64,000 nucleotides of DNA from Acutalibacteraceae bacterium (GTDB taxonomy: Bacteria; Bacillota; Clostridia; Oscillospirales; Acutalibacteraceae), in assembly GCA_045594685.1 (NCBI GenBank), contig JAZNYZ010000003.1:5670-69669 (forward strand). The letters are read 5' to 3'. The notes beneath the pieces were generated by a model. That model saw only the letters and a program-made list of their open reading frames with translations. It did no database searches and had not been told where the DNA came from. Of the stretch, positions 1,027-34,229 are shown piece by piece (within the stretch, counting starts at the first letter, position 1; each line of letters begins with the position of its first letter). The position numbers and the translations under genes are program-made.

Positions 1027-1039
1027 AAAAGGACAAAAA

Positions 1040-2305: not shown

Positions 2306-2311
2306 AAGCAA

Positions 2312-2349: not shown

Positions 2350-2357
2350 TATTTTAT

Positions 2358-6459: not shown

Positions 6460-6495
6460 TACGTATATACTTAAGTATAATTGGAGGCGAGGGTT

Positions 6496-7554: not shown

Positions 7555-7560
7555 ATTACA

Positions 7561-11056: not shown

Positions 11057-11427
11057 CAAATAAATTACACACCTCTGTGCAAACCCAGGAGATATTTACG
11101 TCTCTTTCACAGTCTCTTGGTTTGCAACCTTTTATTTTATCTAAATTGGCCATTGCGTTATCAGTTAGAAAAGGAAAAATTCTTGAAGAAGACTATAAAA
11201 CCGATAACGACGGCTTAGAACTGAGTAGACAAACAATTTTTGGTGACCACGATTTGCTATTTAAATCATTAATAATTAACAGAGAGGATAGGGCAATAAA
11301 TGAGGAAGAGTATTTTCCGGGTATTGTAAAAGCTCATCTTGATCGTGGTGCTAAATTACTTGAAGATGAAAAACGATACACAAAAGATTTTTACAATCAT
11401 CTTTGCAGGCTTGATATGAATATTTAA
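11053..11427 (+). CDS. dndE: DNA sulfur modification protein DndE
   Basis: ATGA overlap with dndD. 124 aa; N-terminal pattern (T..Q..F..L...LGLQPFILSKLAIALSV) is typical of DndE. Confidence 0.75.
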   Translation: MTNKLHTSVQTQEIFTSLSQSLGLQPFILSKLAIALSVRKGKILEEDYKTDNDGLELSRQTIFGDHDLLFKSLIINREDRAINEEEYFPGIVKAHLDRGAKLLEDEKRYTKDFYNHLCRLDMNI

Positions 11428-13348: not shown

Positions 13349-13514
13349 AATAATAGAACAAACAATAGACCAAGTAATTGACGAATCTAAAACTCCGTCT
13401 GATTTTAAGTCCGTTTTTAAGAAGTATATTAAGAATAAATTTGACAACAATGCAAGCGAAGGCGACTTGAAAAGAGCTTTGGCACTCATTGAAGAGGAGG
13501 ATGAACAGATATGA
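13338..13514 (+). CDS. 58-aa acidic protein of unknown function
   Basis: ATG 13338 lies 8 nt after GAGGAG, overlaps the helicase stop (13348), and its own stop overlaps the next start (ATGA at 13511). Confidence 0.5.
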   Translation: MRNKIIEQTIDQVIDESKTPSDFKSVFKKYIKNKFDNNASEGDLKRALALIEEEDEQI

Positions 13515-15430
13515 AAATGTCTATCCTTGGAATCGAATACAAAAATATTCGAAAAATCTCTGAGTTAAAGCTTTCATTTGTTGATGTTGATGGTAACCCG
13601 ATCAAAAATAATTTCGTAATGATGGCAAACGGTACCGGCAAAACTACGACAATGGGTCTTATCAAGGGATTACTTGATGGTTCGGCAGAGGATTGGGAAG
13701 TTAATACTGTAAAACAATACGCCCCAAAAACTTTTGAAGCGGATATGGGTTGGTTTAAAATAACGGTGAAATTTGATGAACGGCTATTTATATACACTTT
13801 GTATTTAGACTACAATAAAGGCGAAGCGTGTATAGAGACTACAACTACCGAAAAAGGTGGAGCTAATAAAGGTCGTCTTTTGCCTGATGCTCTTAAGGGG
13901 ATTTTTACGCCCGAATTTGTAAGACGTTTTATCTTCGACGGTGAGCAGGCAGAAAAAACAATGGATAGTTCCTCTAACGAAGCTGAAGAAACTATTCGCT
14001 ATCTTTACAGATTGGATGAACTTGATGATATTATTACAGCTAATCAAAGAATTCTATTCGAGATTCAGGACGCTGAAGGAAGCAAGGGTAGCAAAGGTTC
14101 CTTGAGCAATTTGCGCACACGTCAAGACAATGTGAAAAAGACAATTTCTAAATTGAAAGAACGCGCAGAACATCTTCGTAAAGATATCAAAAAGTTTGAT
14201 GATGAGAAAAAAGAAAAAATCGCCCAACGTGACGCACTTGATAAAAATTACGAAGCCTTAAATCAAGAAAAACAAGAAATTGTAAAATTACAACAGCATA
14301 ATAAAGATTCTATTGATGCAAAGATTTCTGAAATAATTGGATTAACAAAATTCCCTTATTTGATTAGCCAGGAATTTTGTGATCGTATGTATGGACTGGG
14401 TAGCAGTATGACAAAACTGAAGTTGCCCAAAACCATTTCTAAGGACTTCTTTGTAGAGTTGGCGCATGCCGAAGACTGTATTTGTGGCAGATGTATTGGA
14501 GAAAGTGAAAAGAAAACTATTCTTGAAAATGCCGAAAAATATTTAGGTAGCGATCAACAGTCCGTCCTCAATGCAATAAAGAGCAGTTTGATGGCTTGTT
14601 CTTACGATTCGCGCTTAGGTGATGCCTTTGTTGATATCTCAAAATTGCGCGAAGAAGCAAACCGTCTGCAAACAAGATTCAATACTAATGCGGAAAAACT
14701 GTTAAAAGCGGGTGGCGAAGAAGCCGCTAAGTTAAAGCAGAGAATAGACGAATTAGAAGAATTTATTGCGGTTTCTAAATATCAGTTAGATCTAATCGAA
14801 TCTAAAGATGAGAGCAATGAAGAGCTTACAGAAGATAATAATCTTTACAAAGCTGGGCTCTTAGAAAAAGATTACGAGCAAAAGATAGCTGCCGCAACAA
14901 GAACAAATGCTGCGCTTTATAAAAAAGAGGTTGTTGAGAAATTAGTTACTGAAATTAAAGAAAAAGCAACTGCAGCTCTCAAGAAAGAAATTATCCGAAA
15001 AGCAAACGAGAAAATCCAAAAGGTTATAATGGACGATTTTATTGAAATCGAAAATATTGACCGTTACATAAAGCTTAAAGGCAGAGATGGTGCAAGCGAA
15101 GGACAAACTCTTGGTATTGCCTACTCTTTCCTCGGCACCCTTTTTGAAGATTCAGAGCTCGAGTTCCCATTCGTTATTGACTCGCCTACAGGTAAAATGG
15201 ACTTTCGTAAAAGACAAGCTGTTGCGGATATTATTCCCAAAGTGTTTAACCAAATGGTTGCGTTTGTTCAGTCGGCCGAAGTTGAACGTTTTGCCGATAG
15301 ATTTTATGATAAACCCGATGCACAGTATCTTACTATTATTGCATCACCCTACACTGGCAAGGTAGAAGTGCACGAAGGCATAGAATTTTTCGATTCCTAT
15401 CAACATGAGCATAAAGGAGATGAAGAATAA
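13511..15430 (+). CDS. DndD-paralog / Rad50-SbcC-like ABC ATPase with a central CxxC hook
   Basis: Walker A MANGTGKTTT, about 400 aa of coiled coil, DCICGRC at about residue 323 of 639, signature-like ASEGQT, Walker B FVIDSPTGKMD. Confidence 0.75.
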   Translation: MKMSILGIEYKNIRKISELKLSFVDVDGNPIKNNFVMMANGTGKTTTMGLIKGLLDGSAEDWEVNTVKQYAPKTFEADMGWFKITVKFDERLFIYTLYLDYNKGEACIETTTTEKGGANKGRLLPDALKGIFTPEFVRRFIFDGEQAEKTMDSSSNEAEETIRYLYRLDELDDIITANQRILFEIQDAEGSKGSKGSLSNLRTRQDNVKKTISKLKERAEHLRKDIKKFDDEKKEKIAQRDALDKNYEALNQEKQEIVKLQQHNKDSIDAKISEIIGLTKFPYLISQEFCDRMYGLGSSMTKLKLPKTISKDFFVELAHAEDCICGRCIGESEKKTILENAEKYLGSDQQSVLNAIKSSLMACSYDSRLGDAFVDISKLREEANRLQTRFNTNAEKLLKAGGEEAAKLKQRIDELEEFIAVSKYQLDLIESKDESNEELTEDNNLYKAGLLEKDYEQKIAAATRTNAALYKKEVVEKLVTEIKEKATAALKKEIIRKANEKIQKVIMDDFIEIENIDRYIKLKGRDGASEGQTLGIAYSFLGTLFEDSELEFPFVIDSPTGKMDFRKRQAVADIIPKVFNQMVAFVQSAEVERFADRFYDKPDAQYLTIIASPYTGKVEVHEGIEFFDSYQHEHKGDEE

Positions 15431-15909
15431 TGCATTTTAAGATGTCTAAAAACGCTCAGTCGTTTTTTTCTGATATAATAAGTCCTGCCGGTTCTCATGG
15501 CTCGGAAAATAAGAACAAATTCAAGTTTCAGTTCGACGTGTATTATTGTTGCGCTTTGTTAGGTATGGCGGCAGTTCAACTTGATGAAGATGCCTCGGAT
15601 CTGAATGATTTGACGGAAAATTATCCGAAGCCGTACATTGACTGTAAAGCACAAATTGCTGGTCTTTTGGTTGCTACTGAGGCAAAACGTCAAGGAATTG
15701 ATGTGCAAAGCCCTAAACTTGAGGAAATGATGTTACGCTATTTGAGCGATAACGAAACTATGCTTTCTGATGAGGGTGTAAAAACATTAAATGCTTATGC
15801 ACTTAGAGGATTTCAATTGATTCACGATTTCCCTCTTGAAGAAAAGCCGACTTCCCGCGAAGAGTTTTTGGAAGCGTTTAATATTGCATTACAAAGGCAT
15901 ACTTTATAA
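15430..15909 (+). CDS. 159-aa protein of unknown function (possibly a Dnd-associated family)
   Basis: The ATG overlaps the upstream TAA (TAATG). RBS aaaggaga. No catalytic motif recognised. Confidence 0.55.
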   Translation: MHFKMSKNAQSFFSDIISPAGSHGSENKNKFKFQFDVYYCCALLGMAAVQLDEDASDLNDLTENYPKPYIDCKAQIAGLLVATEAKRQGIDVQSPKLEEMMLRYLSDNETMLSDEGVKTLNAYALRGFQLIHDFPLEEKPTSREEFLEAFNIALQRHTL

Positions 15910-15952
15910 GTGCAAGCAAAAAAACTTATTGACGTAAAAAAGGAGAAGAATA

Positions 15953-17752
15953 ATGGTAAATCAAATCACACCCATTTATACAACAATTGGTGACATTTTT
16001 GAAAAAAATTATTTATTTGAAGTCCCCAAATATCAACGCTACTATTCGTGGGAAGAGGAACAAATAGAAGATTACATTAAAGATATAGATAATATTTTTA
16101 ACAATACAACAGATGAAAATCCAATTGAACACTTTTTTGGTGGAATAGTAGTCGTAGAAAAGCCGGTTCCTGGGTCAACTCGTTCACAGCGAGAACTTAT
16201 AGATGGTCAACAAAGAATTACTACAACTATACTTTTAATTACTGCGCTAATTCGTAAATATGAAGAACTCAAAAATTCGGATAATTTAACTTTGATTGAA
16301 AGTAGAATAAATAAGTTAAAAGAAAAGTATATGGTATATAACGATGAAATTAATCGTATTCCCACACCAGTTAAAAAACTTGTACTATCGAATGCAGATT
16401 CACAATTCTTTGAGGATATAGTAAATAATCGCACAGGCAGAGTAGGTCGAGATTCACATAAACGCATCAATAAGGCGTTTAACAAACTCAAAAAGTATGT
16501 TAACGATAAGATTGATGTAATAGTATCTATTGAGGAAAAAACAGACGCTATAGCCAAAATAGAAAAACTGATTCATAAAAATTGTACTATCATTTTTATC
16601 GATTCTAGAACAAGAGAATCAGCATATAAATTGTTTCAAGTTTTGAATGATAGAGGTGCGGGTCTTACAGAAGGTGATTTGCTAAAGTCTAAAACACTTG
16701 AATCTCTTGAAAAGCATTTTTCATTGCGTCAGGCAGGCGTAGAACGTGATTGGGATGAAATATTACAGGATGAACCTAAAATCATCGAACAGTTTTTACG
16801 CTATTACTATGCCTCTGTATGTGGCAAACGTGTAGGAAGAACTTCTTTGTACGATGATTTCCTAAAGAAATTCTTCCCCAAATTAGTAGAAGTAGAAGCT
16901 GTTACAGAAGAAGCTGATGCAAATGAGGTTGTTGATACTGTTGCAGTTATTCTTAGTGAAGTAAAAACCTATCGCAAATTGATTAATGGGATTTGGCCTT
17001 ATGACTCTCAACAACCGATTACTGATTGGAATCGTAAACGATTAGATATTTTAGTCAATTATTTGAATTTTGATATTGTTTATCCTATTTTGCTGGCGGC
17101 TTCTCATTTAAGTGAAAAAAAGTTTTCGGAACTTGTACATATGCTTGAAAAATTTATGTTTAGACATAAAAGTGTATCTAATCTTGGTCATCAAAAATTA
17201 AGCGATTTGTACATGGCAGAAGCTGTAAAAATAAGATGTGATCCTGAGAATTATAGACTATCTGAATTGAGAAGTAAACTTCGAGAGTATATTGAAACCG
17301 AATGCACAGATGTGGTTTTTCGTGCTGGATTATCCAATTTAAAGTATAGAACCAGTGGCAATAACAAGCAGTTGAAGTATTTGTTTAGCACTCTCAACGA
17401 ACATGTTGAGTGGTTTGCGGCAGGAGCTGACGGTGCGCCTAAACCGAACACCGGAAGTGTTATTAATTACGATAATGTAACTATAGAGCATATAAGTTCG
17501 CGGTCTGCCGCAACACCTTTGCCGGAATTTGAAGGAGATAAAGTACACAGTTTTTATAATTTGACACTTTTGACAGGTGCAGAGAATGATAGAGCTAACA
17601 ATAAAGATTTCTTGTCGAAGAAGCCTATTTACGAAGGATCTTTTTATATTCTAAATAAATATTTTACGCCTTTAGCTAAGTGGGACTATGCAGCAGCAAA
17701 AGAATGGGAAGAGTATTTAAAAGATTTTGCATGTAAAGTGTTTGTTGTATAA
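15953..17752 (+). CDS. DUF262 (ParB/NTPase-like) plus DUF1524 (His-Me/HNH-like) protein, GmrSD/SspE-like
   Basis: N-terminal FEVPKYQRYYSW and ELIDGQQRITT. C-terminal TIEHISSRS...NLTLLTGAENDRANNKDF. RBS aaaaggaga. Confidence 0.8.
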   Translation: MVNQITPIYTTIGDIFEKNYLFEVPKYQRYYSWEEEQIEDYIKDIDNIFNNTTDENPIEHFFGGIVVVEKPVPGSTRSQRELIDGQQRITTTILLITALIRKYEELKNSDNLTLIESRINKLKEKYMVYNDEINRIPTPVKKLVLSNADSQFFEDIVNNRTGRVGRDSHKRINKAFNKLKKYVNDKIDVIVSIEEKTDAIAKIEKLIHKNCTIIFIDSRTRESAYKLFQVLNDRGAGLTEGDLLKSKTLESLEKHFSLRQAGVERDWDEILQDEPKIIEQFLRYYYASVCGKRVGRTSLYDDFLKKFFPKLVEVEAVTEEADANEVVDTVAVILSEVKTYRKLINGIWPYDSQQPITDWNRKRLDILVNYLNFDIVYPILLAASHLSEKKFSELVHMLEKFMFRHKSVSNLGHQKLSDLYMAEAVKIRCDPENYRLSELRSKLREYIETECTDVVFRAGLSNLKYRTSGNNKQLKYLFSTLNEHVEWFAAGADGAPKPNTGSVINYDNVTIEHISSRSAATPLPEFEGDKVHSFYNLTLLTGAENDRANNKDFLSKKPIYEGSFYILNKYFTPLAKWDYAAAKEWEEYLKDFACKVFVV

Positions 17753-17865
17753 TTTCTGGACTTTTTAAAATCTTTGGTATATGTTTGTGTTGCATGAAGG
17801 GAGTGCAACATATGAGAATGATTGAAGATTTATTCTATGGCAAAATATGTCCGTATGAGAAACGT
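17749..17865 (+). repeat. Direct repeat copy A (promoter-like region, RBS hairpin and first ~17 codons of a small gene)
   Basis: Aligns with 21519-21635. The 53-nt core 17776-17828 is identical to 21548-21600. Confidence 0.9.
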
Positions 17866-17883
17866 TTTAGAATAAGTGGTTAA
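17812..17883 (+). pseudogene. Truncated copy (23 codons) of the gene at 21584-21862
   Basis: MRMIEDLFYGKICPYEK matches MRMIEELFYGNICPCEK, then diverges and stops. Confidence 0.7.
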
Positions 17884-21518: not shown

Positions 21519-21635
21519 TAATTCACTGGACTTCTCAAAATTTTTGTGGTATATGTTTGTGTTGCATGAAGGGAGTGCAACATATGAGAATGATTGAAGA
21601 ATTGTTTTATGGCAACATATGCCCGTGTGAGAAGA
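21519..21635 (+). repeat. Direct repeat copy B
   Basis: See copy A. This copy contains the promoter-like region and the 5' end of the intact gene 21584-21862. Confidence 0.9.
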
Positions 21636-21862
21636 GTTTGACTCGTGGTAGTGAGTATTCACATCTGTTGAATTTGGCGGTGAAGAATGAGGAAAAGTTT
21701 TCTGCACTACTATCACCACAACAGAAAGAGATGTTTGAGAAAGTCAAAGATTGTATGACTGATATGAACAATCTCTTGGAAAAGGAAGCGTTTATTGACG
21801 GGTTCAGATTGGGTATTAAACTCATAGCAGAAGCGGTATATGATAAGTCCCGTGACATATGA
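21584..21862 (+). CDS. Small helical protein (MRMIEELFYGNI... family common next to XRE regulators in Clostridia)
   Basis: ATG 21584 lies after the RBS gaagggag, which sits in the loop of a 6-bp hairpin (21561-21581). The listed start at 21557 lacks an RBS. Confidence 0.6.
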   Translation: MRMIEELFYGNICPCEKSLTRGSEYSHLLNLAVKNEEKFSALLSPQQKEMFEKVKDCMTDMNNLLEKEAFIDGFRLGIKLIAEAVYDKSRDI

Positions 21863-21914
21863 TTTAGATAATTATGCCTTATTACGAGGTGTAAGCCGTT
21901 TTTTCAGAGATAAA

Positions 21915-21946
21915 GCGAGGGTGGGGTGTTTAGTCCCTGCCCTCGC
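21915..21946. terminator. Bidirectional hairpin terminator; member of a repeated hairpin family
   Basis: gcgagggtgggg / ccctgccctcgc stem between convergent genes. A near-identical hairpin occurs at 24492-24521. Confidence 0.6.
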
Positions 21947-21955
21947 TTTGCGTGT

Positions 21956-22558
21956 TTATTCACTCCAACCCATTTCGTCGTCGGTGATGCCAAGTTTTCT
22001 GCATTCGTTGCAGACATACTCTTTTTCGTCTTTGTTGCCGATGGTATATTTTAATATTTTATCACGGAAGACGATGAGTTTCGTTTTACCTGATTTGAAA
22101 TCAACAAACCAACTACCATTTTTCATAACCTTTGAGAGTTTTTGTGGTAGTGCAACATCCTCTGATGTGAAGAAAAGCACAGTCCAATATTTCGGTGTTC
22201 CACCTGTATCCCAAAGTTCAATTTTATTAACGGAAATACAGTCAATAACACTGTCATCTTCCAAGCTTTCTTTTATAAGTACTCCCTCGAAAACTTGTTT
22301 TGTTGCTTTTGTGATGGTATTTTTACCGCAATGATGAACTTCCTTTACAGTATCTATTTCGAATTCATCACGAAGTAAAACATCTGTGCTTACGCCAAAA
22401 GTTTCACTCAATATAATTAGTTTTTCGATTTCGGGTAGTGCAATATCCGCTTCCCATTTGGATACAGATTGTCTGCTTACACCACAAATCTCCGCAAGTT
22501 CTTCTTGGCTTAAATGCTTTTCTTTCCTTAAATGTTGGATTTTATCAGATAGCTTCAT
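21956..22558 (-). CDS. XRE-family HTH regulator with a C-terminal domain of unknown function
   Basis: MKLSDKIQHLRKEKHLSQEELAEICGVSRQSVSKWE HTH. Start at 22558 behind ggtgagg; the listed start at 22612 runs into the upstream gene. Confidence 0.8.
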   Translation of the reverse strand: MKLSDKIQHLRKEKHLSQEELAEICGVSRQSVSKWEADIALPEIEKLIILSETFGVSTDVLLRDEFEIDTVKEVHHCGKNTITKATKQVFEGVLIKESLEDDSVIDCISVNKIELWDTGGTPKYWTVLFFTSEDVALPQKLSKVMKNGSWFVDFKSGKTKLIVFRDKILKYTIGNKDEKEYVCNECRKLGITDDEMGWSE

Positions 22559-22580
22559 AACCTCACCACTTTCTGAGAAT

Positions 22581-22588
22581 ATTATACA
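22581..22588 (-). promoter_or_regulatory. Extended -10 (TGTATAAT) promoter for the XRE gene
   Basis: Minus-strand tgtataat lies about 25 nt upstream of the ATG. TTCAAA sits 17 nt further upstream. Confidence 0.4.
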
Positions 22589-22592
22589 CCTT

Positions 22593-23147
22593 TTATTCTG
22601 CAATTTGAACATCGTCGCCCGTAAAAATTATGGCTTGATTATCTTTCAAACGAACCATTTTCATCTTTTGAAAGTTGTGTTTTCCTGCAGGAGTGCTATT
22701 TTTACAATGGACATCAATTTTGCAAGGGAACCACGGAATACCTTTTTTGAAATCAGGTCCGCAAATGCAACTGCCTGCACTTACACCCACATACATACCA
22801 TCATTCAATACATATTCCTGAATTAAATCAATGAAATTAACTTTTCTCATGTGCTTAATAAGATGATTACAGTCACCACCGCAAACATACACAACATCGT
22901 ATGATTTTAACTGTTCATAGGACAGCATATAATCTAAATCATATATAGTGATATTTTCTTTTGTGAAACCTGCATTCAGCAAATCATTCATACATTTTGG
23001 AAGTACTGCTTTAGCATCTTCATCAATGGCAGCAGTAGGAATCCACAGGGCTTTTGCTTTTTGGGCAGGTTTGCCAACCATCTCTAAAAATATTTTCTCA
23101 ATGTTTGGATTCTCAAATCCTGCAGAAGTTAGAATAATTCTTTTCAT
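22593..23147 (-). CDS. Peptidase S51 (peptidase E) / class I glutamine-amidotransferase-like protein
   Basis: MKRIILTSAGF...ALWIPTAA...VYVCGGD...YVGVSAGS pattern of S51 dipeptidases. Start at 23147 behind gaaaggtg. Confidence 0.65.
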   Translation of the reverse strand: MKRIILTSAGFENPNIEKIFLEMVGKPAQKAKALWIPTAAIDEDAKAVLPKCMNDLLNAGFTKENITIYDLDYMLSYEQLKSYDVVYVCGGDCNHLIKHMRKVNFIDLIQEYVLNDGMYVGVSAGSCICGPDFKKGIPWFPCKIDVHCKNSTPAGKHNFQKMKMVRLKDNQAIIFTGDDVQIAE

Positions 23148-23240
23148 AATAAAAACACCTTTCGAATTTTGATTAAATACTATCAAAACCGAAAGGTGTT
23201 TTCTACCAACTAAGAGGTTACTTGATGCAACCTGTGGGTG

Positions 23241-24329
23241 CTATTCTAATATATTTATAATCGCCTTGAAATCTTCTGTTTGCTTGAATTCAGCTGAAAG
23301 GGGATATTTGTTTAATAAATTGTTTTTCATTCTTTCGCACATGGTTTTGCCGAATTTGGTTTTCTTGTAAACTGCACCGTCCAAAAGCATTGAATTATGT
23401 GTGTTTTCATCAGGCAATCCATCGTGCTTTTTGGCAAGCTCTGCACATTTTCTTAAATATTCAAGGCATTTGTCAGTGTTACCATTTTCAAAATATAAAC
23501 GCCCTAAATCACCGAGTAAGAATATTACGGATCGATAACAAGAACCATAGTTGCCATCATCATAAACAGTATTTAACACACCAAGGCATTTTTCCATTGC
23601 TGCTATCTGGTATTCAACAGAAAAGCTTTTCTTGTAAAACAGCAAGTTGCTTATGGTGCTCATAAACAAAAGCATTTCATTATCAAGTGCAGTTTTACAG
23701 GCTGAGTAATGCTCATCATCGGGCAGATTTATAACGGTTTCAAGATATTCTCTGCTGTCAATCATACATGGCATTTCTTTTGCGATTTCAAGCATTTTTT
23801 CGGTGTATTTATCTTTGCCTGTTTTGTGGCTTAAGGTGTTGTAATACATACAAATACGGCGTTTTATCCATATCCGAATTTTATCATCGGTGCAACCGTT
23901 TAAGAGCCTGGTGTAGAGCTTCTCTACCTCATCAAGTATTTCTTCGCTGTCGCAATCTCTTGCGGATTTTATCATAATTAGCATATCGAGATAACGGGCG
24001 AGTAAGCGGAACTCTCCCGGGAATTCTTTGATTGCCTGACTCATTTGGTCAAACACATAAGGACTGTCCTTTAGCCTGAGTTCGTCATATAACTTCATAT
24101 ATTGCTGTATTTTTTCTTCCTTTTCATTTGTATCAACACCTAAAAGTTCATCGCAGCTCACACTAAAATACGATGCGATTGACGGTAAAAGGGTGATATC
24201 GGGATAACTTTCTTCACGCTCCCATTTGCTTATGGTTTGAAAAGATACACCAAGAGCTTCAGCAACCTTTTCCTGAGTCAATTCTCTTTTAAGTCGTAAA
24301 TTCTTTATATTCTTACCAATAGAAATCAT
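23241..24329 (-). CDS. XRE HTH plus TPR-like repeat regulator (RRNPP-like architecture)
   Basis: N-terminal HTH LTQEKVAEALGVSFQTISKWE, followed by about 290 aa of helical repeats. ATG 24329 lies 10 nt after AAGGAG. Confidence 0.7.
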   Translation of the reverse strand: MISIGKNIKNLRLKRELTQEKVAEALGVSFQTISKWEREESYPDITLLPSIASYFSVSCDELLGVDTNEKEEKIQQYMKLYDELRLKDSPYVFDQMSQAIKEFPGEFRLLARYLDMLIMIKSARDCDSEEILDEVEKLYTRLLNGCTDDKIRIWIKRRICMYYNTLSHKTGKDKYTEKMLEIAKEMPCMIDSREYLETVINLPDDEHYSACKTALDNEMLLFMSTISNLLFYKKSFSVEYQIAAMEKCLGVLNTVYDDGNYGSCYRSVIFLLGDLGRLYFENGNTDKCLEYLRKCAELAKKHDGLPDENTHNSMLLDGAVYKKTKFGKTMCERMKNNLLNKYPLSAEFKQTEDFKAIINILE

Positions 24330-24491
24330 AGCAATCAAGCTCCTTAATTTTTTAACTACGTAGCTTGATTTTATAATACATTACAGGAGATATAAAAACA
24401 ATAACCTTTTATGCGAATACAATTCTACCAATAGGCGAAAACTCAACCAATCGTATAAATTCCTTTTTGTGCGATTTGAGGCAAGAAAGGA

Positions 24492-24521
24492 CGAGGGTGG
24501 GGATATTAGTCCCTGCCTTCG
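24492..24521. repeat. Second copy of the cgagggtgggg...ccctgcc(t/c)tcg hairpin
   Basis: About 85 percent identical to 21916-21946, but here it is not downstream of any gene. Confidence 0.6.
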
Positions 24522-24573
24522 CTTTTAGCGTTTTGTGGCAGTTGAGGGGGCTTTGTGGGGCTGGAAAGTGTCG

Positions 24574-26800: not shown

Positions 26801-27832
26801 ATGTTAACCGATAATAAAAAACTCTTTGCAATTGATGCGGACTCTTTGATGAATGCATATATCCCGAAATTAGATTACCGGGTTGAAACTCTCTTACCCC
26901 AGGGCTTAAGTATTTTAGGTGGAGCACCTAAGGTTGGTAAGAGCATGATGGTACTTCATATGTGCGATTGTGTTTCAAAAGGTAATGACTTTTTAGGACT
27001 CAAAACTAATAAGTCAGGGGTGCTGTATATTTCGTTGGAAGACACAGAAAGACGACTGCAGAGCAGACTGTTTGACATAAGTGATGAGGGTGCTGAGAAC
27101 CTGTTTCTCGTAACTGAAACACTTACTTTAGGCACAGGTCTCATAGAACAGCTGACTGATTTCATTACAGAAAATCCGAATGTGAAGTTGATTGTAATAG
27201 ATACATTCCAGCTTGTTCGAGATGCAAATACAGATATGTCGTACAGTAATGACTACAAAGATATGTCCATACTGAAGCATTTCGCTGATGAATTTGGTCT
27301 GTCAATTCTTCTTGTTATGCATCTGAGAAAGCAGAATGACAGCGACCCGTTCAACAGAATTGCAGGAACAACAGGCATCATTGGTGCGGCAGATAATATG
27401 TACATTCTTGATAGAAGCGACAGAGGTGAAGGCAGTGCAAAGCTGAAATGTACAGGCAGAGATATCGAAACTCGTGACATTGAATTAAGGTTCAATAAGG
27501 AAGAATGTAAGTGGGAGTTGGTAGGCGACAGCCTTCAGCAACCCGAATTCTCTTTACCGAAAACTATGTTTGAGTTGGTTGAGTTTATGAAAAATATCAA
27601 ACAGTATGACGGTAGCAATACCTTGTTCTGCGAAATGTTCTGCGAGTTTTCAGGCTCCGATGTTGATGCGAAAAGTCTTAAAAGAATGATGAATAAATAT
27701 CGCCACGAGCTTGAAAATGCGAACGTATTCTTCTCCAGTTACCGCTCCAACGGGAGCAGGTTTTTAGGAATAACGTACTTAGAACCAACAGAGGAAAGTA
27801 CAAAGACAGAGAAAGCATTTGGTGTCACTTGA
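26801..27832 (+). CDS. RecA-fold AAA ATPase (AAA_25/RepA-like)
   Basis: Walker A GGAPKVGKSMM, Walker B LIVIDTFQ. RBS aggaggtg. Confidence 0.7.
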   Translation: MLTDNKKLFAIDADSLMNAYIPKLDYRVETLLPQGLSILGGAPKVGKSMMVLHMCDCVSKGNDFLGLKTNKSGVLYISLEDTERRLQSRLFDISDEGAENLFLVTETLTLGTGLIEQLTDFITENPNVKLIVIDTFQLVRDANTDMSYSNDYKDMSILKHFADEFGLSILLVMHLRKQNDSDPFNRIAGTTGIIGAADNMYILDRSDRGEGSAKLKCTGRDIETRDIELRFNKEECKWELVGDSLQQPEFSLPKTMFELVEFMKNIKQYDGSNTLFCEMFCEFSGSDVDAKSLKRMMNKYRHELENANVFFSSYRSNGSRFLGITYLEPTEESTKTEKAFGVT

Positions 27833-27869
27833 GAGCTTTTTAAGAAACTGAATGTCAGATAATAGTGGC

Positions 27870-28090
27870 AGGAATAAGCACGGGGGCATAAATACCCCTG
27901 TGCGACCACTTCGGACGGCGACGCCGACCGAAAAAGCCCGATTCTACGGGGGTTGTGGGCATTGTGTGTCACTACATACTTTGGCGCCTTTGACGGTATC
28001 GGTTGTGTCACTCAGAGCGCTCCAAATTCGAGAAAAATCGCCGTGAATGCCGATGTTACGGGGTTTCAAGAGTGTTAAATCGGAGCCGTT
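27870..28090 (+). other. GC-rich structured non-coding region with two pairs of direct repeats
   Basis: By eye about 50 percent GC against a much more AT-rich background. 9-bp hairpin gcacggggg/cccctgtgc (27877-27902). tgtgtcact at 27965 and 28004. tacgggg(g)tt at 27945 and 28057. Confidence 0.5.
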
Positions 28091-28126
28091 GAGTGTGTAT
28101 TACTAAAAAAGAAAGGAGGTTTTAGC

Positions 28127-28597
28127 ATGATAGGTGAAGATAAAATAAGAATCAGTCTTTATCTCGATAAAGATTTCGTTAAGAATGTTGATGAAGTTAT
28201 AAAGAAATATGGTTATGCTTCAAGAAGTGATTTCTTTAAAATTGCAGGAGAAAATCTCGCTGCAGACAGAGCTCTTCAGGAAAATGCAACTGCTATTTCA
28301 AGAAGATTGGCTTATGAAATCAACAAAAACGGTAAAGAAAATTCCAAAAGAATTTCACAAGGCTTCTTCAGATATGCAGTTCAGCTTGAAATGTTAATGA
28401 GAGTTGTTGCAAAAATTCTCGGAGCAACAGATGTTGATATTGATAAGATTCGTAAAGATTCGATCAGAAATGTTTACTATACAAAAGGCAGAGTAAACAT
28501 GGAAGAAATACTAAAAGATTATCAATATAAAAAGAACACAGAAGATGATTATGATTATAACTATGACTACATCTACGATGACGAATACAATTATTAA
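28127..28597 (+). CDS. Ribbon-helix-helix (CopG-like) domain protein with a Tyr/Asp-rich tail
   Basis: IRISLYLDKDFVKNVDEVIKKYGYASRSDFFKIAGENL resembles the RHH fold. RBS aaaggagg. Confidence 0.5.
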   Translation: MIGEDKIRISLYLDKDFVKNVDEVIKKYGYASRSDFFKIAGENLAADRALQENATAISRRLAYEINKNGKENSKRISQGFFRYAVQLEMLMRVVAKILGATDVDIDKIRKDSIRNVYYTKGRVNMEEILKDYQYKKNTEDDYDYNYDYIYDDEYNY

Positions 28598-28704
28598 ATA
28601 AGAAAGGTTAGTGATAAAGGTCGTGGCATTATGCCACGTCGATTTGTGAAAAAGAATACCTTACCTTGTCCCTTTAATATAAATGAAAGGGCAGGTGAGA
28701 GGGA

Positions 28705-28881
28705 TTGAGTAAGACTAAGATTGTTCGCTTGGAGCGAACAGAATTTAAGTTGAGCAAAGAGGAAAAAGAAGAGTATGAAAAAGCATTGCTTTTATCTCTT
28801 TATCAATCCCTCTTTGATGAAGGCAAAATATCATTCGAGCAGTTAAAATATTTGGAAAATATGAACTGTAAATATTGGTGA
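28705..28881 (+). CDS. 58-aa hypothetical protein (below the ORF-track cutoff)
   Basis: TTG start after the RBS gtgagaggga. Translation LSKTKIVRLERTEFKLSKEEKEEYEKALLLSLYQSLFDEGKISFEQLKYLENMNCKYW. Confidence 0.4.
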   Translation: MSKTKIVRLERTEFKLSKEEKEEYEKALLLSLYQSLFDEGKISFEQLKYLENMNCKYW

Positions 28882-28974
28882 TTGTGGTGATAGATATATG
28901 CCGAAAATTATAGTATTGTTGGGTTGGCAGTGGTGTGAGCTACTGCCAACCATATAAAGAATAGGAGGTTAAAA

Positions 28975-30726
28975 ATGAATTTAAGAACTGATAGAATTTT
29001 AAAAGTCGCAGTGTATTGTAGAGTGTCAACCGACAAGGATGACCAGGCAAACTCCCTTGAAAGTCAGCAAAAATATTTCACGGAATACATAAAACGAAAT
29101 CCTATGTGGGAGCTTTATGATGTGTATGTTGATGAAGGATTATCAGGAACGAGTACTAAAAAACGAAAAGCGTTTAACAGAATGATGGTTGATGCTCAAC
29201 TGAAAAAGTTCGACCTTATCATCACAAAAGAGATAAGCCGTTTTGCAAGAAACACTCTTGATAGTATTTACTATACTCGTCAACTTAAGGAGTATGGAGT
29301 AGGGGTTATGTTTGCAAACGATAACCTGTTTACTCTTGACCCTGATGCAGAGCTTCGCCTTACAATTATGGCTTCCATAGCTCAGGAAGAAAGCCGAAAA
29401 ACTTCCGAAAGAGTTAAGTGGGGTCAGAAAAGACGAATGGAACAAGGTGTTGTGTTCGGACGGAATATGTTAGGATATAATGTTCGCGAAGGTAAGCTTT
29501 ATGTGGATAAAGATGGCGCAAAGGTTGTTCAAAAAATATTCCATAAATATGTGATTGAGCAAAAAGGTACATCCACCATTGCAAGAGAGCTTCGTGAAGA
29601 GGGCATACCAAGTTTCAATCATTCGGAATGGACTAACACCGTAATACTCAGGATACTGAGAAATGAAAAGTATTGCGGAGACCTGATTCAGAAGAAAACT
29701 ATTACACCCAATTATCTTACACACGAAAAAGTGATAAACAATGGTCAGGAAGATTTTATAATTATAAGAAATCATCATGAGCCTATTATCACCCGTGAAC
29801 TTTTTGAAATGGCTCAAATTGAAATGGCAAAGCGTTCGCCCTCGGAAGACAAACTTGCTAAGCTTGGAAGACGATACTGCTTCTCAGGGAAAATCAGATG
29901 TGCCGAGTGCGGTCATAACTTTGTGTATCATGATAAAAAGTTAGCAAGCGGAAATCGATATAAATTCTGGGAATGCTACAACAAAAAGAAATATGGCAAA
30001 AGAAAAAGAATTGATATTTCAAGTGGTAAAGAGGTGGGGTGTGACTGTAAACCTATTTCGGACAAAGATTTGAAACTGATTATGCAGAGTATTATTGAGA
30101 TGCTTCAAATCAATTCCGATTCCATTCTCAGAACTATGAAAACTCAACTTTCTGAAGTGTTCAGTATGGACGGACTTGAGGACTATGAAACTAAAAAAGC
30201 AAGTCTTGATTCGTTGAAAGAAAAAAGAAATGCATTGGTTGATTTGTATCTTGATGAATGCATAACGAAGGATGAATTTAAAGAAAAAGCTCTGAGTATG
30301 GACCGGGAAATTGAGCGTCAGGAAGAAGCATTGGGAGAACTCAGTAGGTATAAGTTTGAGAAAAAAGAGTTTAAGACAGTTGTTAATGAATGCCTGAAAT
30401 ATGCTGATGATTTTATCAAAAGCAGTGAAATATCTGATGAATTTATAAAAGCAATTCTTGAAGAAATGGTTATTCGCAAAAACAAGGTGATTGAGGTGAA
30501 ATTAAAGCTGATTCCCGGAAAGTGGAAGTTTGCAATCGAGTCAGTTACCAAAAATAAGAATCAGAAACATAGTGAGGAAATGCCACTAGTAACTGATGTG
30601 GATACCTGTGAAACGGAAGGGGAATTTAAGCCCCAAAAACGAAAAAAACAGGCAAAAAATGCCCCTAAAGACAATAAAGTTACTGATGTACCCACATCTG
30701 TAAGGAGTCCCTTTAATTCGGGGTAG
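28975..30726 (+). CDS. Large serine recombinase
   Basis: Resolvase catalytic motif VAVYCRVSTDKDDQANSLESQ, recombinase domain, and a Cys-rich zinc-ribbon/coiled-coil C-terminal region. The last ~13 codons are antisense to the catalase fragment. Confidence 0.9.
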   Translation: MNLRTDRILKVAVYCRVSTDKDDQANSLESQQKYFTEYIKRNPMWELYDVYVDEGLSGTSTKKRKAFNRMMVDAQLKKFDLIITKEISRFARNTLDSIYYTRQLKEYGVGVMFANDNLFTLDPDAELRLTIMASIAQEESRKTSERVKWGQKRRMEQGVVFGRNMLGYNVREGKLYVDKDGAKVVQKIFHKYVIEQKGTSTIARELREEGIPSFNHSEWTNTVILRILRNEKYCGDLIQKKTITPNYLTHEKVINNGQEDFIIIRNHHEPIITRELFEMAQIEMAKRSPSEDKLAKLGRRYCFSGKIRCAECGHNFVYHDKKLASGNRYKFWECYNKKKYGKRKRIDISSGKEVGCDCKPISDKDLKLIMQSIIEMLQINSDSILRTMKTQLSEVFSMDGLEDYETKKASLDSLKEKRNALVDLYLDECITKDEFKEKALSMDREIERQEEALGELSRYKFEKKEFKTVVNECLKYADDFIKSSEISDEFIKAILEEMVIRKNKVIEVKLKLIPGKWKFAIESVTKNKNQKHSEEMPLVTDVDTCETEGEFKPQKRKKQAKNAPKDNKVTDVPTSVRSPFNSG

Positions 30727-30803
30727 GGCATGGCGAAGCGTTGGGAGAGGTAGCGGAGTGATGCTCCGAGCTCACCATCGGGACCGCCATATTGCAAAAA
30801 GAT
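30687..30803 (-). pseudogene. Internal fragment (~39 codons) of a Mn-catalase / CotJC-family gene
   Basis: Minus-strand translation LQYGGPDGELGASLRYLSQRFAMPYPELKGLLTDVGT matches the CotJC region QYGGADGELAAALRYLNQRY...GLLTDIGT(EE). Similarity ends abruptly on both sides. Confidence 0.8.
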
Positions 30804-30809
30804 ATAATA

Positions 30810-32258
30810 TTAAGAGTAAAAATAAATGTCGAGGGTTGGCGGGGTGCTGGTTTTGTTATATACGATGCGGGATATGATTGTTCTGAGGGCATCGTTTTTC
30901 ATTTGTTCGCTGGCATCTGGAGCTTCGAGAATATCAATAACCTTTTTCACTTTCTTTTTATAGCCTTTGGCAGAAGGTGCTTTTGTGTTGGGTTTTGCTT
31001 TCTGCATTTCTTTTTCAATAGTGGCTATGGTTCGGTTGATTTGTTCTTTCTGCTCCTTGTACTCTTCAAGGGTGTCAACGCCTGTTGTATAAGCTTCTCT
31101 TATTTTTACAAGCTTTTGCTGCTCTCTTTTTAAAAGAGCCTCAAGGCTTTGGGTTTCGTCATTCTTTTTAGGTTCTGCAGGTTCGATATTGAAGGCTTCA
31201 TTTTCATAGGCTTGTTTTAGCAAATCGATTATGATTGCATTTGCTTTTTTGATTGAAAGAGAGTGAGAAACGTTGCAACCTCTTGAGCTTGAATAGTTGT
31301 GACATTGTACGCTGGGGCAGGCAGTGGAAAGGTGAACGAGGGTTGCACCACAATTCCCGCAGCGCAATAAACCTTTAAGCATAAAATCAACATTTTGATT
31401 TTGTCGCTGATATTTACGGAACTTCTTCCTGTTCTCTGCAAATATTGCTTCAGCTTTATCAAAGGTTTCCTGAGTAATAATAGCTTCGTGTTTGCCGTCA
31501 ACTATTATATTGTTTTCATTATAATAATCTCTTTTGGAAGATGCTCTGCCCTCTGTGCACCAGCGAATCTTACCGGCATAAACAGGATTATGGAGAATGT
31601 ATTCTACATAACGTCTGTCAGGGGCATTACCTCTCGTTGTTTTTACTCCCAAATTCTGAAGCCAACGGGTTATTTCGTTTATATTAGTACCGTTTATAAA
31701 TTTATTGAAGATTTCTTTTACAATAGGAGCTTGTTCCGGGTGGGGAAAATACTGCTTATCCTTCATCAGGTACCCGAAAGCAGGAGCACAGAGAGGTTCG
31801 CCCCTATTTGCTTTCTCGGTCATACCTCTTTTTACTTCTTCAGCAAGGTTGATTGAATAATATTCATCCCAAGCTTCGTAAACAGATTCAAGAATAATTG
31901 AAGATTTATCATTACTTAATTGTTCGGAAATTGATATAACATCAATTCCACAATCTATACGAAGTATGGATTTATATGAAACGCTGTCTTGTCTGTTACG
32001 GGCAAAACGGGAGAATTTCCAAACAAGAATAGCATCGAAGGGCTTGGGTTTTGTTTTAGCAATACCTATCATGCGCATAAAGGCGGGACGTTTGGTAGCT
32101 GTTTTACCACTTATGCCTTCGTCTATAAAAATATAATCTTCAGGAAGAATATAGTTATTCCTTTTAGCAAAATCCCTGATGTGCTTTAATTGGGAATCGG
32201 GGGAGTACTCCAGCTGGTCGTCTGTGCTTACCCTAATGTAAGCGGCGGCTATTTTCAT
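30810..32258 (-). CDS. Large serine recombinase (prophage integrase)
   Basis: AAAYIRVSTDDQLEYSPDSQ catalytic motif, recombinase domain, and a CGNCG...C...C zinc ribbon. Confidence 0.9.
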   Translation of the reverse strand: MKIAAAYIRVSTDDQLEYSPDSQLKHIRDFAKRNNYILPEDYIFIDEGISGKTATKRPAFMRMIGIAKTKPKPFDAILVWKFSRFARNRQDSVSYKSILRIDCGIDVISISEQLSNDKSSIILESVYEAWDEYYSINLAEEVKRGMTEKANRGEPLCAPAFGYLMKDKQYFPHPEQAPIVKEIFNKFINGTNINEITRWLQNLGVKTTRGNAPDRRYVEYILHNPVYAGKIRWCTEGRASSKRDYYNENNIIVDGKHEAIITQETFDKAEAIFAENRKKFRKYQRQNQNVDFMLKGLLRCGNCGATLVHLSTACPSVQCHNYSSSRGCNVSHSLSIKKANAIIIDLLKQAYENEAFNIEPAEPKKNDETQSLEALLKREQQKLVKIREAYTTGVDTLEEYKEQKEQINRTIATIEKEMQKAKPNTKAPSAKGYKKKVKKVIDILEAPDASEQMKNDALRTIISRIVYNKTSTPPTLDIYFYS

Positions 32259-32395
32259 TTATTCTCACCTTCACCCTTGTTTTGCTCTGATAATTGATTA
32301 TAAACTTCGTCTAAAGCTTTAAAGACTTCTTTCATAAATTTATCAGTTGTTTCATTTTCAGAAAGTTTAAAATCGTCAATAGATTTCTTTGACAT
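32255..32395 (-). CDS. 46-aa hypothetical protein (lysogeny operon)
   Basis: Its stop overlaps the recombinase ATG (ATGA). Translation MSKKSIDDFKLSENETTDKFMKEVFKALDEVYNQLSEQNKGEGENK. Confidence 0.4.
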   Translation of the reverse strand: MSKKSIDDFKLSENETTDKFMKEVFKALDEVYNQLSEQNKGEGENK

Positions 32396-32543
32396 TTTTC
32401 TCACCGTCCTTTTTTAGTGAATTTATAATTTTGTTTAGTTCTTCAGGATGAGAGCGGATGTACTCAATGAGTTGAGCTTCATCCCAAGATAGATTTGATT
32501 TTTGGAGAATGTAGTCAGGGATGTGTTCGTCAGATGTTTTCAT
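32376..32543 (-). CDS. 55-aa hypothetical protein (lysogeny operon)
   Basis: Starts 4 nt after the upstream stop. Translation MKTSDEHIPDYILQKSNLSWDEAQLIEYIRSHPEELNKIINSLKKDGEKNVKEIY. Confidence 0.4.
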   Translation of the reverse strand: MKTSDEHIPDYILQKSNLSWDEAQLIEYIRSHPEELNKIINSLKKDGEKNVKEIY

Positions 32544-32546
32544 TTT

Positions 32547-33431
32547 TTATTTTGAATTTCTTCTAATTATCACACAAGAATGACCTCTATAGCCTTGACT
32601 TTCTGCATATTCAATGTTGTGGACATAATAAGAATCAGCATTTTGGAATTCTTCACAATCGTAGGTATGATAGTGATAAGAATCATTTGCATCTATAAAA
32701 GCTAATTTATTGTCTAAAAAATAGGCCTTGGAAAAATCCTTAATTGCTTTTGACTTATAGTTATCGTATTCATCTTCAAGACTTTCATATTCTATAAGAC
32801 TATCGTTATATTTGTTCTTGTAATACTCTGTAAGTTCTTTTTCTTTAGCAACATCATTTTCAAGCTCTGAAACATAAACTGCCAAAAGAATATTTGCAAT
32901 GAGTGAAAAGCAGAGTACAACACAAAGAACAATTGTAGTAATTTTGAAACTTCTGGGTGTAGGTTTTTTATGAGCTTCCTTTAATAAGCGTTTTTGTTCC
33001 TTGTAAATTCTACGAGCAGCCTTTTTTCTATCTTTGTATGATAAAGGTATTGTATTTTCAGTTTGTGTTGTTTCAGTGTTATTTTCTTGTGGTGGAGTAT
33101 AACGTGCATTATCAGAGATTGCCTCTGATGTTTCTGTAACAGTCACAGTTGCAAGTTCCGTATTGCTCTTTATATCAGATTTTTTTATTTTCTTTTCTAA
33201 TTTTTTATAATAGTATTCGTCCCATATTTCACCGGATTTTTTACAAAGATATAAAGATACAATATAGCAAAGCGTTGTAGGTAAAAAACCTAATAAGATA
33301 TTACCCATTTTTAATAGTGAAATAAAAAGAGTTATCAGAAATAAAATAAACAACCAAATAAAACATTTACCAATAATGCGTATAAAAGACTGTTTTTTTG
33401 TTATGTTTTCCTTTTCCTTCAAAGTTCCCAC
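32547..33431 (-). CDS. Membrane protein with a C-terminal Cys/His (Ada-Zn-like) motif; prophage-expressed, possible exclusion function
   Basis: Two or three TM segments in the N-terminal part and one mid-protein TM. C-terminal YHTYDC...AESQGYRGHSC. Co-oriented immediately downstream of the repressor gene. Confidence 0.5.
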   Translation of the reverse strand: MGTLKEKENITKKQSFIRIIGKCFIWLFILFLITLFISLLKMGNILLGFLPTTLCYIVSLYLCKKSGEIWDEYYYKKLEKKIKKSDIKSNTELATVTVTETSEAISDNARYTPPQENNTETTQTENTIPLSYKDRKKAARRIYKEQKRLLKEAHKKPTPRSFKITTIVLCVVLCFSLIANILLAVYVSELENDVAKEKELTEYYKNKYNDSLIEYESLEDEYDNYKSKAIKDFSKAYFLDNKLAFIDANDSYHYHTYDCEEFQNADSYYVHNIEYAESQGYRGHSCVIIRRNSK

Positions 33432-33437
33432 TCCTTA

Positions 33438-34094
33438 TCAAGAATTTCTAATAACGCTGGTAAAAGCTACTGCTTTACCAAGAATTTTTATTTGATTAAG
33501 CTGTTCATCGGTGTAAACCATATCTGCATACATTGGGTTGCAGGGGGAGAGGGTAAGTTTGTTCTTTGCTTTATACACCTTTTTCAATGTAGCTTCATTA
33601 TCTATAAGAACGGCGGCAATTTCACCGTTCTCAACATCGGGCTGAGGACGGATATAAACAACGTCACCGTCAAAGATGCGGGCAGTAATCATACTGTCAC
33701 CCTTGCATTTAAGTGCAAAGGTTGCGTCAGAGTTCTCATCAATAGAAATATATGCATCAATATTCTCTTCAGCAAGAATAGGTTCTCCGCAGGCAATAGT
33801 GCCGAGCAGGGGAATCTTTTTCATTTTAGGAATACGCATAATTCCGGGAATAGAAAAAATATCATCTGCTACAGTATTCTGGTAATCACGACTATCATCG
33901 ATTAAATATTCCAAAGAAACATTAAGTATAGTTGCATATTCTTTAGCAATTGAAATCTTTGGTGTTCGTTGGTCGTTTTCATATCTGCTTATCACTTGCT
34001 TCGATGTATTTAAAATTTTAGCTAATTCTTCTTGTGTTAAGTCACGTTCTAATCTAATTTGTTTTAATTTTGCACCAAAAGTCAAATTAATCAC
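33438..34094 (-). CDS. Phage cI/LexA-like repressor (XRE HTH plus S24 peptidase)
   Basis: HTH LTQEELAKILNTSKQVISRYE. S24 core KGDSMITARIFDGDVVYIRPQ...ATLKKVY. Confidence 0.9.
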   Translation of the reverse strand: MINLTFGAKLKQIRLERDLTQEELAKILNTSKQVISRYENDQRTPKISIAKEYATILNVSLEYLIDDSRDYQNTVADDIFSIPGIMRIPKMKKIPLLGTIACGEPILAEENIDAYISIDENSDATFALKCKGDSMITARIFDGDVVYIRPQPDVENGEIAAVLIDNEATLKKVYKAKNKLTLSPCNPMYADMVYTDEQLNQIKILGKAVAFTSVIRNS

Positions 34095-34122
34095 CTACCT
34101 GTACCTGCATTATATAGTGTTT

Positions 34123-34229
34123 TGTCACCAAAATCAAGACAAAATTCAAAAAAATCAAAAAAATGTCACCAAAGTATTGACAAAATAAAAATGTTGTGTT
34201 ATTTTATGGTTGTCACCAAATGGTTGACA
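34123..34229. promoter_or_regulatory. Divergent immunity region: three TGTCACCAAA operator repeats and a TTGACA -35 box
   Basis: tgtcaccaaa at 34123-34132, 34164-34173 and 34211-34220. TTGACA at 34177-34182 and 34224-34229. Confidence 0.7.

Follow-up and report, generated by a model that had tools for sequence, protein, structure and literature searches.

Elements that interrupt sporulation genes

Among the closest described counterparts of the locus analysed here are the skin element in sigK of Bacillus subtilis and C. difficile and the phage SPbeta in spsM. Our locus is a copy of the coat catalase gene cotJC that appears to be cut by both a prophage and a defence island, in a stretch of 64,000 nucleotides (the window hereafter) of contig JAZNYZ010000003.1, whose host is an Oscillospirales bacterium, probably of the family Acutalibacteraceae. 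It resembles skin in the placing of an element within a mother-cell sporulation gene, with a large serine recombinase (LSR; SpoIVCA or CD1231 in skin) at one end and with a frame restored by precise excision (predicted in our case). Skin differs in being a single, mostly defective element whose control by sigma-E/SpoIIID or by a directionality factor has been demonstrated (PMC5025042), whereas the window holds two elements, one of them seemingly a complete phage, in the gene of a coat enzyme and not of a regulator. SPbeta (SprA integrase, SprB directionality factor) is alike in being an apparently active temperate phage in a spore-envelope gene with its LSR gene beside the att junction (PMC4191935, PMC5499854). 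Its excision in the mother cell and the sigma-E/K-driven expression of sprB are demonstrated, whereas no SprB-like factor or promoter was found in the window, and the LSRs are only distantly related (less than 30% identity to deposited phages except one faecal virus). The gin element in gerE of B. cereus ATCC 10987 is comparable to the left-hand island as a non-phage element with serine recombinases in a small sporulation gene (PMC5595907), but it is small and has three recombinases; the island is longer than 30 kb and includes defence systems, and a single recombinase gene stands at its junction.

The gene cotJC itself has been named as a target of intervening elements, with Abe 2013 as the source (10.1101/2021.11.22.469490), and a skin-like element occurs in cotJC of Laceyella sacchari (10.1101/2022.02.25.481979). 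These cases share target gene and element class with the window; they are single insertions in Bacilli, mentioned in passing. The C. difficile phage phi027 is located next to a CotJC-like gene and does not interrupt it (PMC11222575, PMC12122855). The literature searched holds no description of two defined hot spots in cotJC with dedicated LSR clades, of the prevalence of cut cotJC in gut Oscillospirales (here about 20% of related species at site 2), or of recurrent double occupancy of the gene. An earlier note on this DNA had called a doubly interrupted cotJC striking; the double occupancy is real and we found no earlier description of it, but interruption of cotJC as such was already in the literature. 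In cyanobacteria, elements in nifD, fdxN, and hupL are excised in the terminally differentiated heterocysts that need the gene, and some genes carry more than one element, albeit in another phylum and another developmental programme.

The cotJC fragment and its two recombinase genes

Very probably, the cotJC gene of the window received two independent site-specific insertions, each mediated by an LSR, a statement that concerns structure and integration mechanism as distinct from developmental timing. The features that carry it are the following (related loci are numbered with L and short protein entries with P throughout).

28975 to 30726, plus strand: left (island) LSR, 583 amino acids, targeting cotJC site 2 (Pfam domains, YCRVST motif)
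30670 to 30690, minus strand: recombinase-proximal attP arm of the island, TACATCAGTAACTTTATTGTC, found directly after GGTACA also in L013, L092, L012, L003, and L056
30687 to 30698, minus strand: site-2 core, GATGTGGGTACA (intact relatives against the window junction)
30687 to 30794, minus strand: middle piece of cotJC, codons 28-63 (PF05067 above cut-off; tblastn with the CotJC of L011)
30783 to 30794, minus strand: site-1 core, CAATATGGCGGT, common to the cotJC attB and the phage attP (attP forms L094-L096; L145/L146; other palindromic attPs)
30795 to 30812, minus strand: recombinase-proximal attP arm of the prophage, TAATATTATATCTTTTTG, overlapping the LSR stop codon; likewise present after the LSR stop of L092, L093, L010, and L094-L096
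30810 to 32258, minus strand: right (prophage) LSR, 482 amino acids, targeting cotJC site 1 (Pfam domains, YIRVST motif)

On the minus strand from 30794 to 30687 the fragment reads QYGGPDGELGASLRYLSQRFAMPYPELKGLLTDVGT, and the reading frame across it runs ...S, a stop codon, YYIFLQYGGPDGELGASLRYLSQRFAMPYPELKGLLTDVGT, and then SVTLLS.... The open reading frame (ORF) of 78 amino acids that contains it matches profile positions 28-64 of the Pfam family Mn_catalase (PF05067) with E = 4e-7 and 29.7 bits, above the curated cut-off of 27, and the intact CotJC of the close relative L011 (205 amino acids) aligns by tblastn, residues 25-64 against 30803-30684, with 87.5% identity and E = 1.6e-19. The catalase identity that the earlier note had proposed is thereby borne out, as is its left limit of similarity near 30687 within the C-terminus of the recombinase ORF, since cotJC homology stops between 30687 and 30686. 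Its two break positions, codons 25 and 62, need correction, since the breaks lie at about codons 30/31 and 62/63. The residues QYG at the left edge of the match, taken there for host sequence, are encoded by the phage attP arm as well and are not necessarily host DNA. The host DNA between the two predicted crossovers spans 30692-30784.

Both recombinase ORFs match Resolvase (PF00239), Recombinase (PF07508), and Zn_ribbon_recom (PF13408) in Pfam, in accordance with the earlier placing of the fragment between the converging stop codons of two LSR genes. Each has the catalytic-serine motif YxRVST, YCRVST in the left and YIRVST in the right protein, of which R9, V10, and S11 are invariant among 17 LSR homologues; cross-matches in the homologue comparison put the two at about 29% identity to each other. 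The genes occupy the facing ends of their elements and hence converge on the intervening host DNA. The left ORF crosses the att junction and stops at 30726 inside the cotJC fragment, its last 11 codons or so being antisense host DNA; these C-terminal residues would change upon excision of the island. In L024 and L052 the tblastn match to the recombinase runs about 90-100 nt into cotJC antisense.

Deposited phage genomes contain no close relative of either LSR (best matches 47% and 43% identical). Searched alone, the left LSR found no relatives among viral contigs, and the right LSR found one, at 45% identity, among viral and JGI metagenome contigs. More relatives of the right LSR came within reach only through a scan of IMG/VR with a profile built from 17 homologues.

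Site 1 and the prophage

The site-1 core CAATAYGGCGGT is common to cotJC and to the palindromic attP of free relatives of the phage. In L094-L096 the attP reads ATATTATATCTAAAACCAATACGGCGGTGCGTACTGTTTTTGAATATAATAT, with its symmetry axis on the second GG of GGCGGT, and its 12 nt CAATACGGCGGT are identical to cotJC codons 28-31; the crossover dinucleotide is predicted to be the GG at 30784-30785. L145 (attP) and L146 (integrated, attR) form a matched pair that agrees with this centre. The imperfectly palindromic attP with a small shared core that is expected of LSRs is found in L094-L096, L145, L149, L132, and L158. An exact search of the viral contigs for the predicted far attP arm gave no match.

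Homologues of the right LSR number 7907 at an E value of 1e-30 or better, and relatives with 42-96% identity adjoin cotJC at codons 25-31. The profile scan of IMG/VR gave 80 loci, 61 of which have enough downstream sequence to be evaluated. In 35 of the 61, cotJC is broken at codons 25-31, 5-110 nt from the LSR stop: 29 carry the gene from codons 25-30 on (5-87 nt past the LSR stop), and six carry codons 1-31 on the opposite strand (22-110 nt from the LSR). The other 26 are without cotJC, and most of those read downstream represent attP forms, with an imperfect palindrome around GGCGG, or around CCGCC where the attP is inverted relative to the gene. Such an inverted core is seen in part of the right-LSR clade (L098, L103, L106, L121, L143, L148, L173; L108-L110, L113, L118, L130), and in its integrated copies the LSR faces the N-terminal and not the C-terminal piece of cotJC.

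Site 1 is cut with site 2 uncut in L001, L091, L093, and 27 IMG/VR loci. In L093, a prophage with the same S24 module and an LSR 63% identical to that of the window, cotJC is present from codon 28 on with its GTEE motif intact; L001 and L091 (LSR 45% identical) likewise have it from about codon 28 on with GTEE intact, and L091 in addition has the N-terminal 30 codons, 2.6 kb upstream of the LSR gene. The right element has the S24 repressor, terminase, portal, head, tail, and endolysin-like genes of a temperate tailed phage, and it has free relatives, whose contigs in attP form measure about 39 kb.

Site 2 and the island

At site 2, intact relatives read GGTACA followed by GAGGAA, while the window reads GGTACA followed by TCAGTAAC from 30686 on. 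The P' arm of the window (TACATCAGTAAC...) and the P arm of L177, a junction with the C-terminal half of the gene, together make up an inverted repeat whose centre is the GG of codon 62: the P arm is TTTCCGATGTA-GG-TAC, and the junction reads ...TTTCCGATGTA GG TACTGAAGAG. Because the arms are symmetrical about this GG, we infer the crossover at 30691-30692. The exact end of cotJC homology shifts by a few bases between LSR sub-families.

When proteins were searched with the fragment, the 120 best matches were all short Mn-catalase ORFs of 48-76 amino acids that read ...LLTD[VI]GT and then continue into unrelated residues. HMMER ranks short targets slightly higher, and the shortness of the best matches is not a sign that intact genes are rare; the search does show that very many truncated cotJC alleles exist. 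Contigs with one such ORF (P0004) all carry cotJA, cotJB, cotJC(1-63), a converging LSR gene of 554 codons, a gene for a 155-amino-acid protein, and an AAA_25 gene.

The prevalence of the cut was surveyed with the N-terminal 63 residues as query and one genome per GTDB species. The 80 loci found are all from Oscillospirales (Acutalibacteraceae, Oscillospiraceae, Ca. Fimenecus, and others); cotJC is intact in 62, broken at codons 62-66 in 16, and broken near codon 136 in two. Relatives of the left LSR (43-97% identity) stand beside the break in 10 of the 16 site-2-cut loci. The two late breaks (L050, 10001-10423, and L068, 10001-10459) leave the family after about codon 135 (DLAA followed by DGA), where the third conserved motif, AAEQKAR, is located. 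The 4 kb downstream of each contain no serine recombinase gene; the two may represent a third insertion site, viewed from the end away from the recombinase, or a plain truncation. In the cultured Pseudoflavonifractor phocaeensis An507 (L076, 10186-13628), two tandem LSR genes of the left clade (44% and 41% identical) directly follow codon 63.

Relatives that carry the same island family have cotJA (PF11007) and cotJB (PF12652) upstream, cotJC being the last gene of a cotJA-cotJB-cotJC operon. The arrangement cotJA-cotJB-cotJC(1-63) with a converging LSR 75-97% identical to the left LSR, and with the same 156-amino-acid and AAA_25 genes, is found in L002-L009, L012, and L013; the LSRs of L002-L009 are 75% identical and converge on codon 63. 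L013, a metagenome-assembled genome of Acutalibacteraceae, has an LSR 96.9% identical to the left LSR and a cotJC uninterrupted at site 1. Its cotJC differs from that of the window by 27 synonymous and two non-synonymous changes in 108 nt; with nearly the same island beside so diverged a gene, the island must have entered different hosts at the same position.

Geometry, recurrence, and sequence constraint

The two predicted crossovers are 93 bp apart. The attB sites of LSRs are about 40-50 bp long (PMC12286644), and the inner half-sites therefore fit in the fragment without overlap. On this geometry each insertion is expected to leave the other attB usable, and the excisions to be mutually independent. 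The best-conserved motifs in the family are GGPDGE and GTEE, which contain manganese ligands, and both sites fall on these; conservation of the motifs would explain the wide host range of each LSR clade. That two different LSR elements sit about 100 bp apart in one cotJC, as the earlier note had it, is supported by the occurrence of each LSR clade, alone, at the same cotJC position elsewhere.

Besides the window, double cuts were found in L092, L010, L119, and L138. L092, from a separate ENA assembly, is colinear with window positions 27348-32546 (5.2 kb) at 95.6% identity, across both LSR genes and the fragment. In L010 the tail of a right-clade LSR is followed by the fragment and by a left-clade LSR (48% identical), in L138 both LSR clades converge on codons 25-70, and L119 is cut at both sites. 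Further samples gave the middle-fragment ORFs P0026 and P0065.

Rejoined in silico at the shared core, the interrupted genes give a full-length, in-frame CotJC in L091 (site 1, element of 4,107 bp), in L088 (site 2, 5,767 bp; Papillibacter cinnamivorans DSM 12816), and also in L089. No internal stop or frameshift is present in the interrupted alleles examined (16 at site 2, 35 at site 1). Between the window and L092, 11 of 108 nt of the fragment differ and no amino acid changes. The synonymous divergence (dS) of the same pair is 0.51 in the cotJC fragment (27 synonymous sites), 0.38 in the prophage recombinase, 0.087 in the island recombinase, and 0.011 in the 156-amino-acid island gene. The island values (0.01-0.09) are far below that of the fragment, and the island is therefore a recent arrival. 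The prophage values are suggestive, and only suggestive, of a prophage that co-diverged with its host while the fragment stayed under purifying selection, the alternative being that related phages were acquired independently.

Gene content of the two elements

The prophage comprises a lysogeny operon upstream of the LSR gene and a long series of genes on the opposite strand that runs beyond the window.

32255 to 34094, minus strand: lysogeny operon, which also holds two small ORFs (Pfam, ORF list)
32547 to 33431, minus strand: membrane protein of 294 amino acids (ORF list)
33438 to 34094, minus strand: repressor of the CI/LexA-like type, HTH plus S24 (Pfam Peptidase_S24, HTH_3)
34177 to 64000, plus strand: rest of the prophage (PHROGs matches)
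42648, plus strand: replication initiator (PHROGs)
44672, plus strand: terminase (PHROGs)
46073, plus strand: portal (PHROGs)
48854, plus strand: major head protein (PHROGs)
53374, plus strand: tail protein (PHROGs)
55157, plus strand: peptidoglycan-binding endolysin-like protein (PHROGs)
56415 to beyond 64000, plus strand: giant ORF of at least 2528 codons, off the window end (open frame; no significant Pfam domain in the part present)

Divergent sigma-70-like promoters are seen at 34109-34137 (minus) and 34177-34205 (plus), in a sigma-70/terminator scan that did not rise above shuffled background. In L094 and L095 a protein of 3325 amino acids with an LPD38 'large polyvalent protein' domain occupies the position of the giant ORF, just before the lysis genes. 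In L094 (LSR 65% identical) lysis genes take up some 3 kb between this protein and attP, and from this layout the right prophage end is predicted about 5-6 kb past the window.

The island has a core next to the LSR gene (26801 to 28881, plus strand) with the same gene order beside the LSR in L003-L008 and L092, and a variable cargo.

3919 to 26613, plus strand: variable cargo, which also includes HTH-TPR regulators (Pfam, PADLOC)
3919 to 4767, plus strand: AriA/PtuA-like ATPase (Pfam/PADLOC)
6481 to 11427, plus strand: DndBCDE (DndB, DndC, DndD, DndE), first part of a phosphorothioate DNA-modification and restriction set (Pfam/PADLOC)
11438 to 17752, plus strand: PbeA/PbeC-like/Orf5, second part of that set, Orf5 being of the GmrSD type (Pfam/PADLOC)
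17939, plus strand: 5'-nucleotidase, cargo (Pfam)
26801 to 27832, plus strand: AAA_25/DnaB_C-like ATPase, core (Pfam)
28127 to 28597, plus strand: RHH-like protein of 156 amino acids, core (Pfam)
28705 to 28881, plus strand: ORF of 58 amino acids, core (ORF list)

The cargo is a mosaic, some parts of which share 89-100% identity with islands in other cotJC genes, for example 21892-24537 with 96.5% identity to L002/L012. A 93-nt direct repeat (17775-17867 and 21547-21639, 91% identical) spans a hairpin-like leader and the first codons of a small ORF (MRMIEDLFYG...), and its two copies may delimit a cargo cassette of the island. Window positions 1-3700 (methyltransferase, GNAT fusion, GH39) are either island cargo or chromosome; within them, 1865-2307, the C-terminal GNAT domain of ORF 977-2305, has 81% DNA and 84% protein identity to a chromosomal GNAT gene of L004 on the far side of the cotJ operon, some 4 kb upstream of cotJA. 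The att arm of the island occurs once in the window, and a search of 1-31000 for a second or inverted copy of it and for terminal repeats gave nothing convincing. Neither element uses a tRNA site, as Rfam and tRNA scans of the window gave no match.

Proposed mechanism and alternatives

In the mechanism that we propose, a temperate phage of about 39 kb would use its LSR to recombine a palindromic attP with the 12-nt core CAATAYGGCGGT at codons 28-31, and a non-phage island of more than 30 kb would use a second, distantly related LSR to recombine at GATGTRGGTACA, codons 60-63. The near-invariant motif DNA would be the landing site of each element across many host species, the two insertions in one cotJC would be independent, and so would the excisions, in either order. 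An intact gene would be regained only if both LSRs, each presumably with a directionality factor of its own, excised precisely; the rejoined attB1 is predicted as …ATCATHWSNCAATAYGGCGGTCCNGAYGG… and the rejoined attB2 as …GATGTRGGTACAGARGAA….

Both breaks lie within codons of cotJC, that is inside the coding sequence of what is presumably a mother-cell sporulation gene, as expected of intervening elements. In B. subtilis cotJ is expressed in the mother cell under sigma-E. The hosts have the appearance of spore formers, the genes around cotJC in L002 and L003 being spoVAC/spoVAEB, one for a sporulation-type sigma factor, cotJA, and cotJB. By analogy with skin and SPbeta, the elements may be excised in the sporulating mother cell, a reasonable possibility that falls somewhat short of being the outcome we expect; if they are not, cotJC would simply be off in lysogens, at little cost to vegetative cells. 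We are more doubtful of the further idea that cotJC of gut Oscillospirales is a two-lock developmental switch, in which both elements, unrelated and each with its own LSR and a dedicated attB in the codons of a catalytic motif, would be excised in the mother cell to give the coat catalase, double occupancy would be kept by selection, and the island would be retained in the spore germ line.

Several observations weigh against these readings. On the structural side, the N-terminal 30 or so and the C-terminal 140 or so codons of this cotJC are not within the window: the middle piece was the sole tblastn match of two CotJC queries in the whole 64 kb. The left end of the island was not found in the 30.7 kb from 1 to 30686, and the site-2 crossover was placed by symmetry and with the help of a single P-arm junction, whose contig is unrelated. 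On the developmental side, no sigma-E or sigma-K (AC-N16-17-CATA---TA) consensus was found upstream of either LSR gene, in a weak scan and in a clade whose promoters may differ. No recombination directionality factor was recognised, the small ORFs beside the LSR genes having no Pfam match. The prophage LSR gene follows the gene of the CI-like repressor in the same orientation, and the two are probably transcribed together, which is the usual arrangement in temperate phages. Finally, B. subtilis cotJC mutants are reported to have no obvious defect (PMC12122855), so restoration of the gene need not be under selection.

We give an even chance to an explanation that shares the structure proposed above and differs as to function only: the elements may have chosen cotJC as invariant DNA dispensable to vegetative cells, would leave it through their own life cycles (SOS induction of the phage, transfer of the island), and would leave the gene inactive in the spores of carriers. 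The place of the prophage LSR gene in a lysogeny operon behind the S24 repressor, the missing sporulation-type promoter consensus near the LSR genes, and the reportedly mild phenotype of cotJC loss in B. subtilis (PMC12122855) all fit it. So do the free attP forms of related phages, which point to active phages and not to domesticated remnants, and the low dS of the island against that of the fragment (0.01-0.09 vs 0.51), which makes the island much younger than the divergence of the hosts and a recent horizontal arrival. It has to contend, however, with the interrupted alleles free of internal stops and frameshifts at both sites, with the purely synonymous change of the fragment between window and L092 though the prophage LSR gene has a comparable dS, and with the precedent of skin, SPbeta, vfbin, vrin, and gin, the intervening elements that have been tested in sporulation genes and that excise during sporulation (PMC4191935, PMC5595907).

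Alternatives to the structure itself fare far worse. It is very improbable that one element captured a piece of cotJC by imprecise excision and that the other integrated into this carried copy, with no chromosomal double split. The absence of the outer gene halves from the window would suit such an origin, but in L013 the near-identical island is joined to a complete cotJC 1-63 whose frame is open upstream and whose surroundings are those of a normal chromosome, the limits of the fragment coincide exactly with the two cores at which relatives with one insertion are cut, and the attP forms of the phage clade carry the 12-nt core only and no gene fragment. Hardly credible at all is a false joining of the LSR genes through a short shared cotJC repeat during metagenome assembly, to which the apparently uncultured source organism might lend itself, since the separate assembly of L092 has the same junction, other element pairs flank the same fragment in L010 and L138, and other samples likewise contain short ORFs of the middle fragment (P0001, P0026, P0065).

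Significance

The junctions described here provide new pairs of LSR and att sites with clearly defined attP and attB, a type of reagent that is used in genome engineering. They also bear on annotation: short 'Mn-catalase' ORFs of 48-76 amino acids in metagenome protein sets are pieces of interrupted genes and not small proteins. The public protein sets (P0001-P0120) contain well over a hundred clusters of such 'Mn_catalase' proteins, N-terminal or middle pieces of cotJC read into element DNA, which amounts to a systematic annotation artefact. Cultured carriers exist in Papillibacter cinnamivorans DSM 12816 and Pseudoflavonifractor phocaeensis An507.

Within a single small gene there are at least two distinct landing sites, each with a large and diverse LSR clade, and both can be occupied at the same time. 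Interrupted cotJC is common in gut Oscillospirales, and the window is a real double case of a known phenomenon. The principle of elements that reside in genes needed only by the mother cell, known from Bacilli and a few Clostridia, is thus extended to the abundant and mostly uncultured Oscillospirales of the gut.

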